Virus record (IMG/VR): IMGVR_UViG_3300042924_005659
Length of the DNA stretch: 64,000 nucleotides
Source: a virus
Direction: 5' to 3' (one strand)
Within the stretch, counting starts at the first letter, position 1; every line of letters starts with the position of its first letter. Positions 17,061 to 23,692 of the stretch are shown here, piece after piece. The position numbers and the translations under genes were made by a program. Under the pieces are notes generated by a model. The model was not told the origin of the DNA and ran no database searches. It saw only the letters and a program-made list of their open reading frames with translations.

Positions 17061-17295
17061 AGATTGCTCCTGAGATCACTGCAAATTATAGCTAAAAAGA
17101 AAGTAGGATTCCAACAGTAAATGCCGTTTAAAAAAGTGTATCCACGTTGCGTATGTTTCTTGTTGCTGTATTCTAATTCTATATACAAGGAAATACTTAT
17201 TAGTGAAGAGGTTAGTAACTTTCGCAACGTGGAGGCACTTTTTTTGAAGGTTCTATGTCGACATTTGAAACAAGGTTTTGCTAAAATGCAGTTCC

Positions 17296-17721
17296 ATGAT
17301 TCCATACGCTCATTGTAAACAGGCGGCTCTATTTGAGGGAGCCAACTCCGACGGACTGCAAGGTCTTAGGGCATTAATTGGAGCTGGACTTGGCGGAGTA
17401 CTAGGAGCAGGTTTAGGTGCAGGTGGAGGGTTACTTAAAGAAACTTTCTTTACTCCTGCAGATCAAGCTCAGTATCTTCGCAGAGCTTTACAAGGTATGA
17501 GCCTTGGAGGTTTGGCAGGTGCGGGTATTGGAGCAGGAGTGGGTGCAAGCAATATAGGTAAGGGTGTACAAAATGCTTTAGAGGATTCTGCGGCTAGAGC
17601 CAACACTAAAATGTTGCAATATGTTGTTGACGCTCTTAATGCCGTTGAAGTAAAAGGCCTAAGTCCACTTGTAGGTACCCCTACGTTTGGGATTAAAGAA
17701 AAGGAAACGACTAATGAATAA
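17296..17721 (+). CDS. Glycine-zipper protein with MIPYAHCKQAA leader
   Basis: ATG 17296 gives a leader matching the MTPYSHY family. Two Gly-rich helices. Confidence 0.75.
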   Translation: MIPYAHCKQAALFEGANSDGLQGLRALIGAGLGGVLGAGLGAGGGLLKETFFTPADQAQYLRRALQGMSLGGLAGAGIGAGVGASNIGKGVQNALEDSAARANTKMLQYVVDALNAVEVKGLSPLVGTPTFGIKEKETTNE

Positions 17722-18469
17722 ATCCGCACAGTACAACCTACTTCGTTATTATCTAATGCAAAAGCTTGCTGCAGAATGTGACTGCGGTATGGATGAAGAA
17801 AGTTGCGACTGCGAGGAGTGCAGCAAAAAAGCCTTTCTAGGCTTATTTAGCAGCGATCCCAGTCCTAACGAAATCTCTATTCCTGACCCTTCTGATAGTG
17901 ACGATCCTGACGTTGAAGTAGAGAAGTCCCTTAAAAATTTAGGCTTTACCGATATTCAACGCCACATGTTTACTCCTTACGTGAATCCATTTACGGCGAA
18001 GGGCCCGGATGGAAAATACTACACGATAGATTTAGATGAAGATGAAAATGTTTGGAGGTCTAAATCTATCAGCGATATGTACGGAGTAGATTCTGTTGCA
18101 GATCTTCCCGATCCGTACAATAGATCTGAGCCTAGATTGGTGCGTTATGCAAGTAAAAAAGCAGATACTTCTTTATTGACTGCTAGTCTTTTAAAGTGGG
18201 CGGCCTCTTCTCCAGCCTGGCAGCGTTCCGAGGGTAAGAACCCGGAGGGTGGTCTCAACGCCAAGGGCAGAGCTAGCTACAACAAGGCTACTGGTGGCAA
18301 CCTGAAGCCTCCGGTGAGCGCTGAGGCTGCCGATAAGAGTCCAGCCAAGGCCAAGCGTCGTAGCAGCTTCTGTGCCCGTTCTGACGGCCAGCGTCGCATG
18401 CACAACATCGATTGCTCCAAGACTCCAGACAAGAGAATCTGCTTGGCCAGAAAGAAATGGGACTGCTGA
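17714..18469 (+). CDS. Modular protein with five K-x-A motifs and a C-terminal DUF6321-like domain
   Basis: ATG 17714 follows an AAGGA SD. C-terminal KNPEGGLNAKGRASYN...RRSSFCARS...RICLARKKWDC, recalled as DUF6321. Confidence 0.75.
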   Translation: MNKSAQYNLLRYYLMQKLAAECDCGMDEESCDCEECSKKAFLGLFSSDPSPNEISIPDPSDSDDPDVEVEKSLKNLGFTDIQRHMFTPYVNPFTAKGPDGKYYTIDLDEDENVWRSKSISDMYGVDSVADLPDPYNRSEPRLVRYASKKADTSLLTASLLKWAASSPAWQRSEGKNPEGGLNAKGRASYNKATGGNLKPPVSAEAADKSPAKAKRRSSFCARSDGQRRMHNIDCSKTPDKRICLARKKWDC

Positions 18470-18538
18470 TAGTTTTAAAAATTTCAGCACTTGACAGCCA
18501 GCTCTTTGAAGCTGGCTGCTCTTTATAGGGGTTTACTC

Positions 18539-19588
18539 ATGGCTATATTAAAGACATATATTCCAACCGTACACGACATTCACACTTACGCCTATCCTGC
18601 TACTTTAAATCCCAGACTGGATGCAAGTCCGTTTGGCTTAAATTCAAAATGCCACGCTGCTCATATTCTGTGGAACGGCGTAAGCATACGTCCTAGAGCA
18701 TTCTGCAGAACGATAGGCACTGTATTTCAAACTGGTTGGACTGCCCCATACGAAGCAGAGAACATTAACTTCTGGAATACCTGCAATCCCACAGCTGTTT
18801 TGATATCCCCTAAGCATGCTTTGATATGCCAGCACTATAGAGGTACTCATGACAGACCCGAGGAGTACTACACCTTCTTAGGACGCTCAGGTACCTTCTA
18901 CACAGGCAGAGTCTCAAAGGCTTATTTAAACATAGGCCCAGACCATACTCTCATCGAGTTTCAAGAGCCGTTTATTACTGACGTCCCGTGCTATTCAAAA
19001 ATTGCCGATATAAAGTACATTCCAGCAGGCACTCCTCTTTGGATTCATGAGTGCAACGGCAAAGCTTACAAGATGCTTTTTGGTCAGGCTCAACTTAGCA
19101 CTGCCGGATCTGCAGTTCAGTACACGTACAATCCTAGCCTTGATCCGATTAACATCGGTATTACTGCAAACGGGTGGCCTGCTATATTTGGAGGAGACAG
19201 CGGATCGCCAACCTTTATTGACTACAACGGTACTACTATTTTTGTAGGTCTATTGCACGGCGGCATGCAGGTAAACGATGTAGAGCTAGCTGCTATAAAC
19301 GCAGTATTGCAGCCTCAAGGTTATTCCGTAGAGCATTTTAAAATTTCTGCTAAGCCTGCTGATTTAAATCAGGATGGATTAGTGGATGGCTCTGATCTTG
19401 CTCAGATCATTGGCGCCTGGGGCAATGGATCTGCCCTTGCTGATTTAAATAAAGATGGAGTGGTAGACTCTGCTGACCTATCCGAGTTGCTTGCGTCATG
19501 GGGAGCGTACGTCATGCAGACAAATTTCTTCAAACCTCCGACTACTGTTCAGCCTGACAACAGCACGAATACCAAACCTAAATCTTAA
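18539..19588 (+). CDS. Trypsin-like serine protease with a C-terminal dockerin domain
   Basis: Triad candidates LISPKHALICQH, DHTLIEF and GGDSGSP. Duplicated Ca-binding repeat DLNQDGLVDGSDL...WG / DLNKDGVVDSADL...WG. Confidence 0.85.
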   Translation: MAILKTYIPTVHDIHTYAYPATLNPRLDASPFGLNSKCHAAHILWNGVSIRPRAFCRTIGTVFQTGWTAPYEAENINFWNTCNPTAVLISPKHALICQHYRGTHDRPEEYYTFLGRSGTFYTGRVSKAYLNIGPDHTLIEFQEPFITDVPCYSKIADIKYIPAGTPLWIHECNGKAYKMLFGQAQLSTAGSAVQYTYNPSLDPINIGITANGWPAIFGGDSGSPTFIDYNGTTIFVGLLHGGMQVNDVELAAINAVLQPQGYSVEHFKISAKPADLNQDGLVDGSDLAQIIGAWGNGSALADLNKDGVVDSADLSELLASWGAYVMQTNFFKPPTTVQPDNSTNTKPKS

Positions 19589-19770
19589 ACGTTCGCTTAC
19601 ATACACAACATGCCTATACTTTTTGAGGTACCGGGCTGTTGCACGACTTCTATGAACTGTTACAATGCTACTAGTCACCTTGAGTAAAGTAAGTGACTAA
19701 TTAGCTTATGTCGCGCTTGCATTAGGCAAGGCAGCAAGACTCAAGCAATTTAAATTAAATAGGAGGTTTT

Positions 19771-19968
19771 ATGGAAGTAAAACCAGGTACCAAAACTACT
19801 GAGTTTTGGGTGGCCTTGGCTCCGGTCCTTGCTGGACTGGTAGAGGGTGTACGTGGAGACCCCGTCAATAACCGCTATCTAATGGTATGCGGAACTGTAC
19901 TTGGCGCTTTATACATATGCAGCCGCACTGTCGTAAAGTATATTTCAAATAAATCGGAGTCAAAATGA
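19771..19968 (+). CDS. Small two-helix membrane protein, holin-like
   Basis: 65 aa. KPGTKTTEFW start, two hydrophobic segments, basic tail. SD AGGAGG. Confidence 0.55.
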   Translation: MEVKPGTKTTEFWVALAPVLAGLVEGVRGDPVNNRYLMVCGTVLGALYICSRTVVKYISNKSESK

Positions 19969-21215
19969 TTAGACTGTTTTCTTTACTGTTGGTTTTAGCT
20001 GTTTCTTTTTCTTCGTACGGACAGACTCTTACTGAAAACGCCAATGGCACATCTACTTTGTCTCAGGGTACGACGTCCTACGTAATAGATTCTGCCAAGA
20101 AGTTTAAAGTTACCCTGAGTAGTGATTACAGCAACGAGACTCAAGCTGGACTTAAGCGCAACGGAATTATTGCATATAGAGATGCTTTTATAGAAGTCTC
20201 AGTGCAGATGGCGGCTTTGCCATCTACTCCTACTGGTAGTGCTCCTTATCAAGTATGGAGATCTTCTGATATTTTGATCTCCTACGATGCACAAAAGTTA
20301 GAGTTTGTATCGTGGTCATCTGATCACTTTATGACTGATAAGTCCGTAATAGATGTGGCTAAGTCAGGTGCCTCTGAATGGATTCCTGGGCTAGTGCAAG
20401 TTCACGCACAGTGTCTAAAGGCTCCGGAATCTAGAATTCCTGCCTTACGACGTCAGCCCTTTCAATGGAATTTTGGAGGCTTTATCTGGAGAGAGCAGAA
20501 CAGCCGACAATTAGGCAGACTTAAATTTAAAGTAAAGGGTGATTTCTATTACCCCGAGTCTTTGGCTACTCACATCACTGCTGTAGCCCAGGCGCAATTG
20601 CCAGACGGCTCGTCTGTTAACTCCAAGATCGACGGAGGTATCAGTACAGGCAACAACGTAATTGGGCCAATTCAAAACGACGTCAATAAAATTGCGTTTG
20701 GGCCAAGCCCTGAATCAAAAGTAAATCTTACTCTTAAGGGTCCTGCTACTCCCGTCAAGGCAGGAGATGATTTTGCAGTTCAAATAATCACTACTCCGGA
20801 TTCCGCCCCTCAAGTAATTTGGAGCGTGTCCTCTATCTTCATTTGGGACTCTTCCAAACTTGCTTTATTAGGAATGGATAAGACGGGAGCCAAGGCGTCT
20901 ATCTTCTCTAAGTTCATGCCTGGGGGTTTAAACGAATCCGAGGTTCCTCAGGATGGAAACGCTCAGCATTTGTTTGGAGCTCAGCTTGGAGATAAACGCC
21001 CTATAGCAGGAGATACTTTGATTGTCACCCTAAGATTCAAGGCTCTGCAGGATTTTACAGACACTAAAATTGAGCTGGTGTCTAGATCTGATCCTAGGCT
21101 ATCAGGCGTATCTATTATCGACGAATGCGGAGTCATAGGTAGCGTAGTGGCCGGAAAGTCTGTTACCGGAACTTTGACTTCGGCTGTCATTCGCGGTGTA
21201 GCTGCCCAGCCATGA
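19965..21215 (+). CDS. Secreted protein with two cohesin-like beta-sandwich domains
   Basis: Signal peptide MIRLFSLLLVLAVSFSSYG. Repeats ISYDAQKLEFV...LGRLKFKV and VKAGDDFAV...WDSSKLALLG...GLNESEVPQDG...IVTLRFKAL. Confidence 0.7.
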   Translation: MIRLFSLLLVLAVSFSSYGQTLTENANGTSTLSQGTTSYVIDSAKKFKVTLSSDYSNETQAGLKRNGIIAYRDAFIEVSVQMAALPSTPTGSAPYQVWRSSDILISYDAQKLEFVSWSSDHFMTDKSVIDVAKSGASEWIPGLVQVHAQCLKAPESRIPALRRQPFQWNFGGFIWREQNSRQLGRLKFKVKGDFYYPESLATHITAVAQAQLPDGSSVNSKIDGGISTGNNVIGPIQNDVNKIAFGPSPESKVNLTLKGPATPVKAGDDFAVQIITTPDSAPQVIWSVSSIFIWDSSKLALLGMDKTGAKASIFSKFMPGGLNESEVPQDGNAQHLFGAQLGDKRPIAGDTLIVTLRFKALQDFTDTKIELVSRSDPRLSGVSIIDECGVIGSVVAGKSVTGTLTSAVIRGVAAQP

Positions 21216-21601
21216 CTCCTTATCACTACAACGTACTTCAGGTCATGCGAGTAGTAGACGGAGATACTGTCGATATGCTGTTGGATCTGGGCTTCTCTAT
21301 TTCCATTAAACAAAGAGTAAGGTTGAAAGGAGTCGACGCTCCTGAGATACTTACTAAAGATGCGACCGAGCGCAAGATGGGCTACGAAGCCAAGGCATTT
21401 TTGGAAAGAAAGCTAATGCAGAATGGCAAACTTAAAGTAAGCACCTTCAAAGATGACAAGTATGGGCACCCTCTTGCCGTCATCTACATGGAAGGTGAGG
21501 AAGCCTCGATCAATCAGCAGATGCTTGAACTTGGCTACGTATGGGCCTATGACGGGGGCAGCAAGATAAAAGACCTGGAATCTCTAAGAAAACCCGAATA
21601 A
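21212..21601 (+). CDS. Thermonuclease (SNase-like) family nuclease
   Basis: RVVDGDTV, RVRLKGVDAPE, DKYG.LA, INQQML.GY motifs. Confidence 0.92.
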   Translation: MTPYHYNVLQVMRVVDGDTVDMLLDLGFSISIKQRVRLKGVDAPEILTKDATERKMGYEAKAFLERKLMQNGKLKVSTFKDDKYGHPLAVIYMEGEEASINQQMLELGYVWAYDGGSKIKDLESLRKPE

Positions 21602-21617
21602 GGAATCTTAGATATCT

Positions 21618-21658
21618 AAAAAAAAGACAGGAGGGCGGGTGCGCCCTCCTGCTTTTTT
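21618..21658. terminator. Bidirectional terminator between convergent operons
   Basis: 10-bp stem CAGGAGGGCG/CGCCCTCCTG flanked by an A run and a T run. Confidence 0.85.
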
Positions 21659-22619: not shown

Positions 22620-22959
22620 TGAAGGGATCGTTCTCTCCCATCAAGTGCTTGGTTGACTCCGTGGGTGTGTTCGGAGTGTTCTCCGCATTGGGTTCCAACA
22701 GGCCCATAAGCCTCAGGAGATCCTCCTGGAAGATGATCGGCCTATAGCACTTCATCAGCATTGCGGTCCTCTTCTTGGCCTGCTCGTATGAGCATCTGTG
22801 AATTACGCCATCCACCACGATTGCCGAAGATGCCTGAGGATCCTTCGACAGTAGCGTCTTCAGCCCTGGTGTTCGAATTGCGCACGCCAGATCTGTATGG
22901 TGGACTAAACGCCATCCGCGAGGTCCATCGCCATGGTTGAGAGTTAGGCAGATGTACAT
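22561..22959 (-). CDS. Hypothetical protein
   Basis: 132-aa ORF coupled to the upstream gene. Confidence 0.5.
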   Translation of the reverse strand: MYICLTLNHGDGPRGWRLVHHTDLACAIRTPGLKTLLSKDPQASSAIVVDGVIHRCSYEQAKKRTAMLMKCYRPIIFQEDLLRLMGLLEPNAENTPNTPTESTKHLMGENDPFNGDDPFWHDYRSEGGSSAA

Positions 22960-23384
22960 TACTCTGCCTCCTTCAGCTTCGCCTGCACCTTGGCCCAGTA
23001 GGCCTTGGTGCTGCTCTTACGGTGACCCTTGGGGCCACCGTTATGGATACGGGCCATGTCCTCCCAGCTGGCTCCCTTGGGAGCATAGCGGGCCATGTAG
23101 GCCTTGATGACCTCTCTCGCGTAGGCAGGATCCTTGACTGCCTGGTAGCCTCTGGCCTTGAGATCCTGGCGGTGTTCCACCGCGTCGAGCCAGTAGCTAT
23201 GCCAGATCTGATAGGCTCCAAGGGCTTTGCCCTTGTCGCCAACCGCATTGTTGGGGTCCTTTTCGGACCCAGTCTCCACCTTCTGGATGGCGTCCAGGAA
23301 GGTGTCCCAGGTCTGAGCCTGGGCGGTGGTGGGAACGGCGAGGTACAGCATCATCGCCACGATGATTCCAATAACAGGCTTCAT
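22959..23384 (-). CDS. Signal-peptide-bearing i-type (destabilase-like) lysozyme / muramidase
   Basis: MKPVIGIIVAMMLYLAVPTTAQA signal. AIQKVETG, GAYQIW..YW.DA and ARIHNGGP motifs. Confidence 0.8.
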   Translation of the reverse strand: MKPVIGIIVAMMLYLAVPTTAQAQTWDTFLDAIQKVETGSEKDPNNAVGDKGKALGAYQIWHSYWLDAVEHRQDLKARGYQAVKDPAYAREVIKAYMARYAPKGASWEDMARIHNGGPKGHRKSSTKAYWAKVQAKLKEAE

Positions 23385-23388
23385 TGCA

Positions 23389-23448
23389 TTTGTTTCCTGT
23401 TGCTGATGAGAAGTCCTGTCGGAACGCCCGACAGGTAAAACCCGAACT
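23389..23448 (-). repeat. Repeated ~60-bp leader, copy A (hairpin plus SD)
   Basis: TTTGTTTCCTGTTGCTG...CCTGTCG-N7-CGACAGG-TAAAACCC; near-identical to 23697..23756. Confidence 0.85.
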
Positions 23449-23692
23449 ACTTCAAGTAGTCTGGGGAATATACGTACCATCCCGCGTCGGGGATCTGTTC
23501 ATCCCCAGGCGGAAACACTTCCGCATAGAACTGCAGTTTGGGACTTTCTCCCAAAAGCGGGTATCCGTCTCTCACTCCTAATCGGGGAGAGAGATGCCGT
23601 ACTCGCTGCAAATGCCTTTTCGCACCCCTTCCAGTGCGAAATAGCAAATTGATTCGTCCGTCGTCCTTGTCTTTGAATTGAACGCAATACAT
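23447..23692 (-). CDS. Hypothetical protein
   Basis: 81 aa, bracketed by the two repeated leaders. Confidence 0.6.
   Translation of the reverse strand: MYCVQFKDKDDGRINLLFRTGRGAKRHLQRVRHLSPRLGVRDGYPLLGESPKLQFYAEVFPPGDEQIPDAGWYVYSPDYLK

Follow-up and report, generated by a model that had tools for sequence, protein, structure and literature searches.

Within a 64,000-nucleotide stretch of virus DNA (IMG/VR virus record IMGVR_UViG_3300042924_005659), hereafter the window, a gene for a serine protease that ends in a dockerin was found two genes away from a gene for an exported protein carrying two cohesin modules. The window comprises bases 26115-90114 of the 174,569-bp genome of an uncultured lake phage, which CheckV rates as 100% complete, and its genes lie mostly on the minus strand, including those for a multisubunit RNA polymerase chain, a ribonucleotide reductase and a family A DNA polymerase. 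The dockerin and cohesin genes belong to a plus-strand island (17278-21601) that encodes, in order, a Gly-rich small protein, a DUF6321 protein, the protease-dockerin, a membrane protein of 65 amino acids (aa), the 416-aa double-cohesin protein and a staphylococcal-nuclease-type endonuclease (SNase), and the last three of these genes overlap through ATGA stop/start junctions, so that the cohesin gene is translationally coupled to both of its neighbours. A preliminary description of the locus, made from the letters of the DNA, had already drawn attention to a holin-like gene between the protease and scaffold genes, to an SNase gene following the latter, and to a bidirectional terminator closing a run of plus-strand genes; all of these were recovered, the first as a gene for a small membrane protein with two hydrophobic helices (Table 1).

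Table 1. Features of the plus-strand island and its flanks, numbered from the first base of the window (pLDDT, predicted local distance difference test; Ca, calcium).
Feature	Position	Strand	Details and basis
DUF6321-ending protein	17687-18469	+	Immediately 5' of the protease gene
Terminator-like hairpin in the gap between the DUF6321 and protease genes	18495..18518	+	9-bp stem, 6 G-C pairs, T-rich tail
Protease-dockerin gene	18539-19588	+	349 aa
S1 (chymotrypsin-fold) serine protease core, residues 1-265	18539..19333	+	Invariant triad; model pLDDT 89.8; Foldseek and VIA matches to S1 proteases
Dockerin, residues 273-322	19355..19504	+	Two Ca-loop and helix repeats, each closing in W-G; Pfam, NCBIfam, motif
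Disordered tail with terminal basic K-P-K/R-x, and stop codon	19505..19588	+	pLDDT <50 at residues 338-349
65-aa membrane protein	19771..19968	+	Two hydrophobic helices (about residues 10-27 and 36-51); charged K/E/S-rich C-terminus
Double-cohesin gene	19965-21215	+	416 aa; leader and two beta-sandwich modules; model pLDDT 88.1
Sec-type signal peptide, residues 1-21	19965..20027	+	Hydrophobic helix at residues 2-16; probable cleavage before Gln21
N-terminal cohesin-like module, residues 22-243, enlarged by insertions	20028..20693	+	hhalign to the C-terminal module
C-terminal cohesin module, residues 244-416, and stop codon	20694..21215	+	VIA; Pfam Cohesin in relatives
SNase	21212..21601	+	Pfam PF00565, E 2.3e-14; phrog_452, E 9e-38
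Bidirectional intrinsic terminator ending the plus-strand island	21627..21652	both	10-11-bp stem, 8 G-C pairs, T-runs on either strand
Destabilase-type (i-type) lysozyme	22959..23480	-	N-terminal signal or anchor; Pfam PF05497, E 8e-11

The ATG at 18539 was accepted as the true start of the protease gene because 26 homologues share an N-terminus of the M-A-I-L-K type. The catalytic triad, consisting of His93 (nt 18815), Asp135 (nt 18941) and Ser221 (nt 19199) within G-D-S221-G, was invariant across 27 aligned family members; the residue six before Ser221, Ala in this protein, varied among homologues. Every Foldseek match listed for the AlphaFold model was an S1-fold chain, and structural alignment with VIA gave V8 protease as the best match (1qy6; Z 13.3, root-mean-square deviation (rmsd) 3.3 Å, 181/216 residues), with Z values of about 13 also obtained for Esp, elastase, plasmin and thrombin and Z >= 8 for 962 of the 1000 chains re-aligned. 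The core matched neither Pfam Trypsin (PF00089) nor Trypsin_2 (PF13365) at E 0.1, and none of the PDB proteases by sequence or profile, suggesting that it represents a divergent family of the S1 fold lying outside PF00089. Its language-model neighbours were serine-protease clusters, commonest in Verrucomicrobiota. The trypsin-fold protease with an intact H/D/GDSG triad that had been described is thus supported by the invariant triad, by Foldseek and by VIA, and the enzyme is predicted to be probably active.

Neither a signal peptide nor a propeptide was present at the N-terminus, as supported by the homologues, so that the earlier remark that the protease has no obvious signal peptide also holds. 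Residues 1-2 of the model aligned with the mature N-terminus of solved S1 enzymes (chymotrypsin residue 16; V8 residue 1), and in two cellular homologues (P0086, P0087) a signal-like leader ends exactly where the phage protein begins. It would therefore appear that the phage protease is made in the cytoplasm, already in its 'activated' form. The combination of core and dockerin is kept by about 60 of the 77 protease homologues. Six others of 400-415 aa (P0062, P0065, P0069, P0073, P0082 and P0084) have an S1 core at 42-53% identity, but where the dockerin would be they carry a conserved module, unrelated to it and about 140 residues long, and another, still longer C-terminal module takes the dockerin's place in P0058 (589 aa). 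Because these C-terminal modules differ among homologues, the targeting end of the protease is exchangeable, as in endolysins.

The duplicated calcium-binding repeat with W-G ends that had been seen at about 19352-19504 proved to be a dockerin above both curated cut-offs, namely those of Pfam PF00404 (E 1.3e-6; 28.9 bits against 22.9; residues 274-317) and of NCBIfam NF041540, dockerin_GC (30.9 bits against 29). Its D-x-N-x-D-G-x-x-D-x-x-D loops lie at residues 275-286 and 302-313 (nt 19361-19504), helices are present in the model at residues 284-292 and 311-319, and the best PDB sequence matches of the protease-dockerin protein were dockerins. Its attribution to a Phycisphaerales type was likewise upheld, as the cellular dockerin cluster closest to it takes its name from a Phycisphaerales metagenome-assembled genome (MAG) and the dockerin_GC cut-off was passed. 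Five of the seven cellular dockerin relatives retrieved (P0088, P0091, P0092, P0093 and one of the same type) end in W-G-x-C and two (P0089, P0090) do not; the phage dockerin has no Cys after its second W-G and ends in W-G-A-Y, followed by a tail of 27 residues. A Cys at this position is presumably what 'GC-type' denotes. The end of the tail, which reads K-P-K-S here and K-P-R-A/S/V/L in relatives, is conserved in most homologues and may be a sorting or processing signal.

The partner protein was found to consist of a leader and two beta-sandwiches only, with no Pfam match for a carbohydrate-binding module (CBM), SLH or other anchor. When residues 251-414 were aligned with VIA, the best match was the type I cohesin CaCohA2 (6kgc; Z 14.4, rmsd 2.5 Å, 138/144 residues); the top 18 rows were all cohesins (Z 12.8-14.4, rmsd 2.2-3.0 Å), as were most of the other rows shown, and the module superposed on type I, II and III cohesins at an identity to solved cohesins of 12-19%. 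The whole 416-aa model gave the type II cohesin dyad 3l8q as its best structural match. Comparison of the N-terminal with the C-terminal module by hhalign returned 96.8% (E 2.6e-10, 136 columns); the motif Y-D-x-x-K-L occurs at residue 107 and W-D-x-x-K-L at residue 294, and the Y-D-x-x-K-L-E motif of the N-terminal module gave a weak profile match to cohesin 5nrm/5nrk (E 0.15). As the C-terminal module matches the cohesin fold over its whole domain and the N-terminal module is homologous to it, the label 'double cohesin' was considered justified, the N-terminal module being the less certain of the two, and with this qualification the signal-peptide protein with two cohesin-like repeats of the preliminary description stands.

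A leader equivalent to that of the window's protein, ending in A/G-Q, is present in most viral cohesin homologues. Four double-cohesin homologues (L001:7980-9182, L002:7992-9182, L021:8001-9218 and L069:1462-2601) were without a signal peptide after inspection of the upstream in-frame sequence, suggesting that the protein is exported in most phages and apparently stays cytoplasmic until lysis in some.

The window's 416-aa protein did not match Pfam Cohesin (PF00963) even at E 1, and its beta-sandwich also aligned with integrin and adhesin Ig-like domains, though across both domains and with a large rmsd. Together with an island G+C slightly below that of the surroundings (0.45-0.48) and a gene order that varies around both genes, this would fit an explanation in which the two proteins are structural look-alikes with no docking role, the 416-aa protein being a generic adhesin or glycan binder, the dockerin a calcium stabiliser or polysaccharide anchor, and their linkage an incidental feature of a variable 'moron' island. 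However, Pfam Cohesin was matched by 14 of the 17 homologues at the same threshold (best E 1.9e-9) and, in the eight homologues examined, by 25-38 bits against 24.1, always in the C-terminal module. With only cohesins at the head of the VIA list, and with the same cohesin family fused to dockerins in phage and cellular proteins, such an explanation was considered improbable.

Searches of the complete phage genome returned the protease alone with the Pfam dockerin profile and the 416-aa protein alone with the cohesin profile, that is, one of each. Both genes are on the plus strand, two genes from each other, within a run of four island genes that has overlapping stops and starts and a single terminator. 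They are also neighbours in two further lineages, L053/L016 (3.2 kb apart) and L055 (0.7 kb apart), in which the proteins are 43% and 36% identical to those of the window; in L055 a holin-like gene and a lysozyme gene also lie within a few kb of the pair. Co-occurrence at the level of whole genomes refers to two near-complete genomes. G004 (93% complete) is the only other genome at least 90% complete with a dockerin-protease, and in it a double cohesin is present with a holin-like gene directly upstream. As the genes are single-copy and adjacent, and as their adjacency recurs in three lineages, tethering of the dockerin-protease to the phage's own exported double cohesin is tentatively put forward as the leading explanation, at somewhat less than even confidence.

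If so, the double cohesin would be exported and put in the envelope during infection. Both dockerin folding and SNase need calcium, which is scarce in the cytoplasm. The protease would meet the double cohesin only on leaving this calcium-poor compartment, at membrane permeabilisation or lysis, upon which the dockerin would fold on calcium and dock in a cohesin, with up to two proteases per scaffold. Once tethered, the protease could cleave envelope or surface proteins, contributing either to release from the protein-rich Planctomycete envelope or to receptor destruction on debris and neighbouring cells. Its action would be placed at or after lysis because the dockerin needs calcium and the protease would exit the cytoplasm only when the membrane is breached. 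A complex prediction for the mature double cohesin (residues 22-416) with the dockerin (residues 264-335) and two calcium ions gave scores of 0.07 and 0.09 against a mark of 0.32, a result that weighs neither way on binding.

Several observations argue against a dedicated pair. The two genes of G004 are at least 21 kb apart and on opposite strands. A cohesin was found within 8 kb in only 2 of the 32 viral protease loci, a protease nearby in only 1 of the 36 viral cohesin loci, and a protease within 10 kb in 0 of the 44 metagenome cohesin loci. Three different profiles detected no cohesin in two dockerin-protease phages, 62% and 73% complete; it is SNase, and not the protease, that most often sits beside the cohesin gene; and export is not universal, given the four homologues that have no signal peptide. 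It is also the case for cellulosomes that a cohesin and a dockerin encoded together are not necessarily cognate. The search for synteny in related contigs that had been proposed with the preliminary description had a divided outcome: the two genes are adjacent in three lineages only, their pairing is not conserved, and the majority of relatives of either one have no partner nearby.

SNase was found to adjoin the cohesin gene, on either side, in about 19 of the 80 related loci (e.g. L003, L006, L010, L015, L018, L020, L023, L072, L086, L101, L102 and L109). The protease homologue of L065/G005, in which the dockerin is swapped for another C-terminal module, was accompanied by no cohesin in the recovered 65% of its genome. 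A 97-aa open reading frame lying about 4.8 kb from the dockerin-protease in L116 (G012:C1:60147-62450, the contig of L061) matched the cohesin profile over its final 40 positions only (E 1e-4) and may be a cohesin remnant.

In eleven viral contigs, an exported protein of 229-254 aa was found in which one cohesin of the phage family is fused to a two-repeat dockerin of the phage type. Since related phages thus join cohesin and dockerin in one exported protein, the two module families are shown to operate within a single system in these viruses. The fusions look like a minimal adaptor or a self-chaining unit. Their loci are exemplified by L027:7938-8702, with a signal peptide, and L033:7956-8645, with none as called, and include L025, L026, L028-L032 and L034-L036; in four contigs (L026, L027, L031 and one related) the fusion gene follows directly after an SNase gene. 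Cellular versions with high G+C were also seen (P0180, P0185, P0190, P0193 and P0208).

Single cohesin-dockerin adaptors of this kind require outside partners, an observation that counts for a second explanation, held to be a substantial possibility though a minority one. Here the dockerin-protease and the double cohesin would not be partners, and each would plug separately into a host cohesin-dockerin network. The dockerin would then bring the protease to host surface proteins bearing cohesins, and the double cohesin would capture, cross-link or mask dockerin-bearing host enzymes or receptors, serving as a decoy, in superinfection exclusion, or to protect progeny from surface peptidases. This explanation is favoured by the weak conservation of the pair and by the richness of such networks in candidate hosts. 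When the C-terminal cohesin profile was used in a full HMMER search, it retrieved 628 clusters (50% identity), of which 248 had E <= 1e-10, and all named members that were looked up came from Planctomycetota, Phycisphaerales or Planctomycetaceae MAGs. The named cellular proteins are secreted surface proteins with an N-terminal cohesin followed by MopE-type, TSP3 or HYR repeats, some with an added dockerin, and resemble the anchor and adaptor proteins of the 'planctosome' (PMC6461901). Among them, P0177, P0178 and P0192 (Planctomycetota/Phycisphaerales MAGs) gave E values of 2e-29 to 4e-25, P0188 consists of TSP3, cohesins (a second having been added) and a dockerin, and P0282 of a cohesin, PKD, seven HYR repeats and a dockerin. 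The nearest cellular dockerins (45-58% identity) were likewise found on secreted proteins of Phycisphaerales type, including an M12-like metallopeptidase.

Set against a role confined to the host network are the presence of just one of each module, two genes apart, in a complete genome and the recurrence of this adjacency in three diverged lineages, and no host partner can be named for a phage whose host is itself a best guess. Docking to the phage's own cohesin and docking to host proteins are not mutually exclusive. The preliminary description had suggested that the phage builds a mini-scaffoldin displaying its protease or else connects to the host's own network; of this, a genuine dockerin-S1 protease and an exported double cohesin two genes away were substantiated, and the host option gained support from the Planctomycetota relatives of the cohesin, while the pair did not prove to be a conserved unit.

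The gene for the 65-aa membrane protein, situated between those of the two partners, has a strong ribosome site (AGGAGG) and ends in an ATGA that also holds the start codon of the cohesin gene. The protein had no Pfam or PHROG match, holin families included, and gave only weak, sub-threshold Atlas leads to holin families; it is accordingly termed holin-like as a putative and unverified assignment. Homologues at 59-71% identity adjoin the cohesin gene in L005, L069, L092 and L099. In the same phages (L069:1298-1465, L005:7813-7974, L080, L092 and L099) the small protein is better conserved, at 59-71%, than the adjacent cohesin, at 34-37%. The SNase, whose start overlaps the stop of the cohesin gene, has no signal peptide and no dockerin. 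The destabilase-type lysozyme, likely the phage endolysin, is encoded 1.4 kb beyond the end of the island on the opposite strand, 3 kb from the gene for the 65-aa membrane protein; in L055 a homologue is encoded less than 2 kb from both the protease and the cohesin gene, and in L008 the distance to the cohesin gene is about 3.6 kb.

These neighbours allow the tethering of the protease to the phage's own cohesin to be taken one step further, as an arm of lysis. The exported double cohesin would be pre-positioned, and the ready-active cytoplasmic protease would dock on it once the holin-like protein opens the membrane, and would cut the protein wall. Until then, its cytoplasmic location and calcium-requiring dockerin would keep the protease harmless to the envelope; the calcium-dependent SNase would clear DNA, and the protein-directed arm would complement the lysozyme. 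In this specific form the proposal is regarded as unlikely, although it would, if true, constitute the first protein-directed lysis arm described for Planctomycetota phages and the first natural viral cohesin-dockerin enzyme complex.

An association with the virion was also considered, in which the cohesins decorate the particle and grip dockerin-bearing host proteins for adsorption, and the dockerin-borne protease clears the protein envelope at infection. Assembly in the cytoplasm would be possible in some phages, given that the protease and four cohesin homologues have no signal peptide. However, the cleavable signal peptide on the window's cohesin protein and on most homologues is hard to square with cytoplasmic assembly, and the calcium required for dockerin folding is scarce in that compartment. 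Furthermore, neither protein matched a PHROG structural family, and the neighbours are of lysis type (holin-like protein, lysozyme and nuclease). Of the explanations considered, this one was given the least credence.

Bacterial cellulosomes are classically held together by the modular pairing of cohesins with dockerins, which has also become a staple tool of synthetic biology. With the type I cellulosome pairs of clostridia (C. acetobutylicum CaCohA2-Doc0917, PDB 6KGC; C. thermocellum 1OHZ), the phage modules have in common the cohesin fold and the two symmetric calcium-loop and helix repeats of the dockerin, and as in cellulosomes an enzyme with a dockerin is encoded beside a multi-cohesin protein with a signal peptide. 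In contrast to cellulosomes, both partners are phage-encoded, the cargo is a serine protease rather than a carbohydrate-active enzyme and has no signal peptide, the scaffold has no CBM, anchoring dockerin, SLH or sortase module, and binding between the phage partners is a prediction. The glycoside-hydrolase toxin complexes of Clostridium perfringens (PDB 2OZN, 2JH2, 2VO8 and 2W1N), which were among the best structural and sequence matches, provide a non-cellulosic example of the joining of secreted enzymes; there, however, bacterial glycoside hydrolases are joined to each other, with no phage, protease or dedicated double-cohesin scaffold involved. The V8 (1QY6) and Esp (4JCN) proteases, the best neighbours of the phage core (Z 13.1-13.3 over 180-181 residues), share its triad order and its start at the mature N-terminus, but the phage protease is only 13-14% identical to them, has no secretion signal or propeptide, and carries a C-terminal dockerin.

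The closest parallel in kind is the planctosome of freshwater Phycisphaerae (Nemodlikiaceae), hypothesised by Andrei et al. (2019) from genomes as a non-cellulosomal cohesin-dockerin system that tethers peptidases, of the M12B and M14 metallopeptidase families, at the cell surface by means of a very large anchor protein (PMC6461901). The phage cohesin profile retrieves Planctomycetota proteins assembled from the elements of that system, namely a signal peptide, a cohesin, TSP3/MopE or HYR repeats and a dockerin. The phage system differs in that its cargo is an S1 protease with no export signal, its scaffold is a bare double cohesin of 416 aa, and both are viral. No paper describing a cohesin-dockerin pair encoded by a phage was found in full-text literature searches, in line with the preliminary description, to which no such phage system was known; the nearest report is a 2026 paper on dockerin domains on a putative virus contig of anaerobic methanotrophic archaea (ANME) (PMC13452462). 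A natural viral cohesin-dockerin system with a protease as cargo would extend these modules to virus-host conflict. The locus makes the purely genomic planctosome idea for the abundant freshwater Phycisphaerae open to test. It also hints at the host of a group of large lake phages that are uncultured, and it supplies new small, probably orthogonal cohesin and dockerin modules, including the 230-250-aa cohesin-dockerin adaptors. Should the protease act in lysis or as a receptor-destroying enzyme, it would show how phages handle a protein-rich envelope.

Close relatives of both phage proteins were found on uncultured viral and metagenome contigs. A tblastn search of both proteins against 50,697 GenBank phage records gave no match, and pattern scans of 185,579 species genomes gave no relative, the patterns having been drawn from phage-specific stretches, which leaves room for distant cellular relatives such as those found by HMMER. 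On the sequence relationships, the best reading is that the phage took up both halves of the cohesin-dockerin system of its host's phylum. With the cellular relatives of the cohesin, the dockerin and the protease core in Planctomycetota or Verrucomicrobiota, the best guess for the host is therefore a member of the PVC (Planctomycetota-Verrucomicrobiota-Chlamydiota) group, most likely of the Phycisphaerales.

A Bacteroidota host had been suggested by the Gln that directly follows the leader in every signal-bearing homologue, in the lysozyme and in a neighbouring outer-membrane-like protein, a Gln in this position being the Bacteroidota 'Q-rule' (PMC5837995). This candidate was rejected because cohesin proteins of Planctomycetota show the same A-Q-A-Q-S junction, because 46% of the phage genes have a Shine-Dalgarno core against a background of 11.5%, and because the Bacteroidota promoter motif was not enriched. 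In P0177, P0192, P0194, P0198, P0210 and P0181, as well as in the phage homologues, the predicted leader is followed immediately by Gln (A-Q-A-Q-S or A-Q-T junctions), which could mislead host prediction.

In ten loci (L038:1872-2627; also L039-L043, L060, L062, L063 and L067), the dockerin-protease gene is followed directly by, or lies near, a gene for a protein of 245-277 aa, which has a signal peptide and an aromatic C-terminal end (F-K-F) like that of an outer-membrane beta-barrel, has no Pfam match and is not a cohesin (hhalign 0.2%). The comparison was made with the 251-aa protein, which in other phages adjoins the protease more often than any other and had been considered as a hidden cohesin. 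A scan for sigma-70 promoters returned fewer sites than were found in shuffles. The hairpin upstream of the protease gene may part it from the preceding transcription unit. A DUF6321-ending protein is also encoded directly 5' of the protease gene in four related contigs (L038-L041, e.g. L039:7715-7978), and the DUF6321 C-terminal domain terminates at least eight PHROG families of widely differing length.

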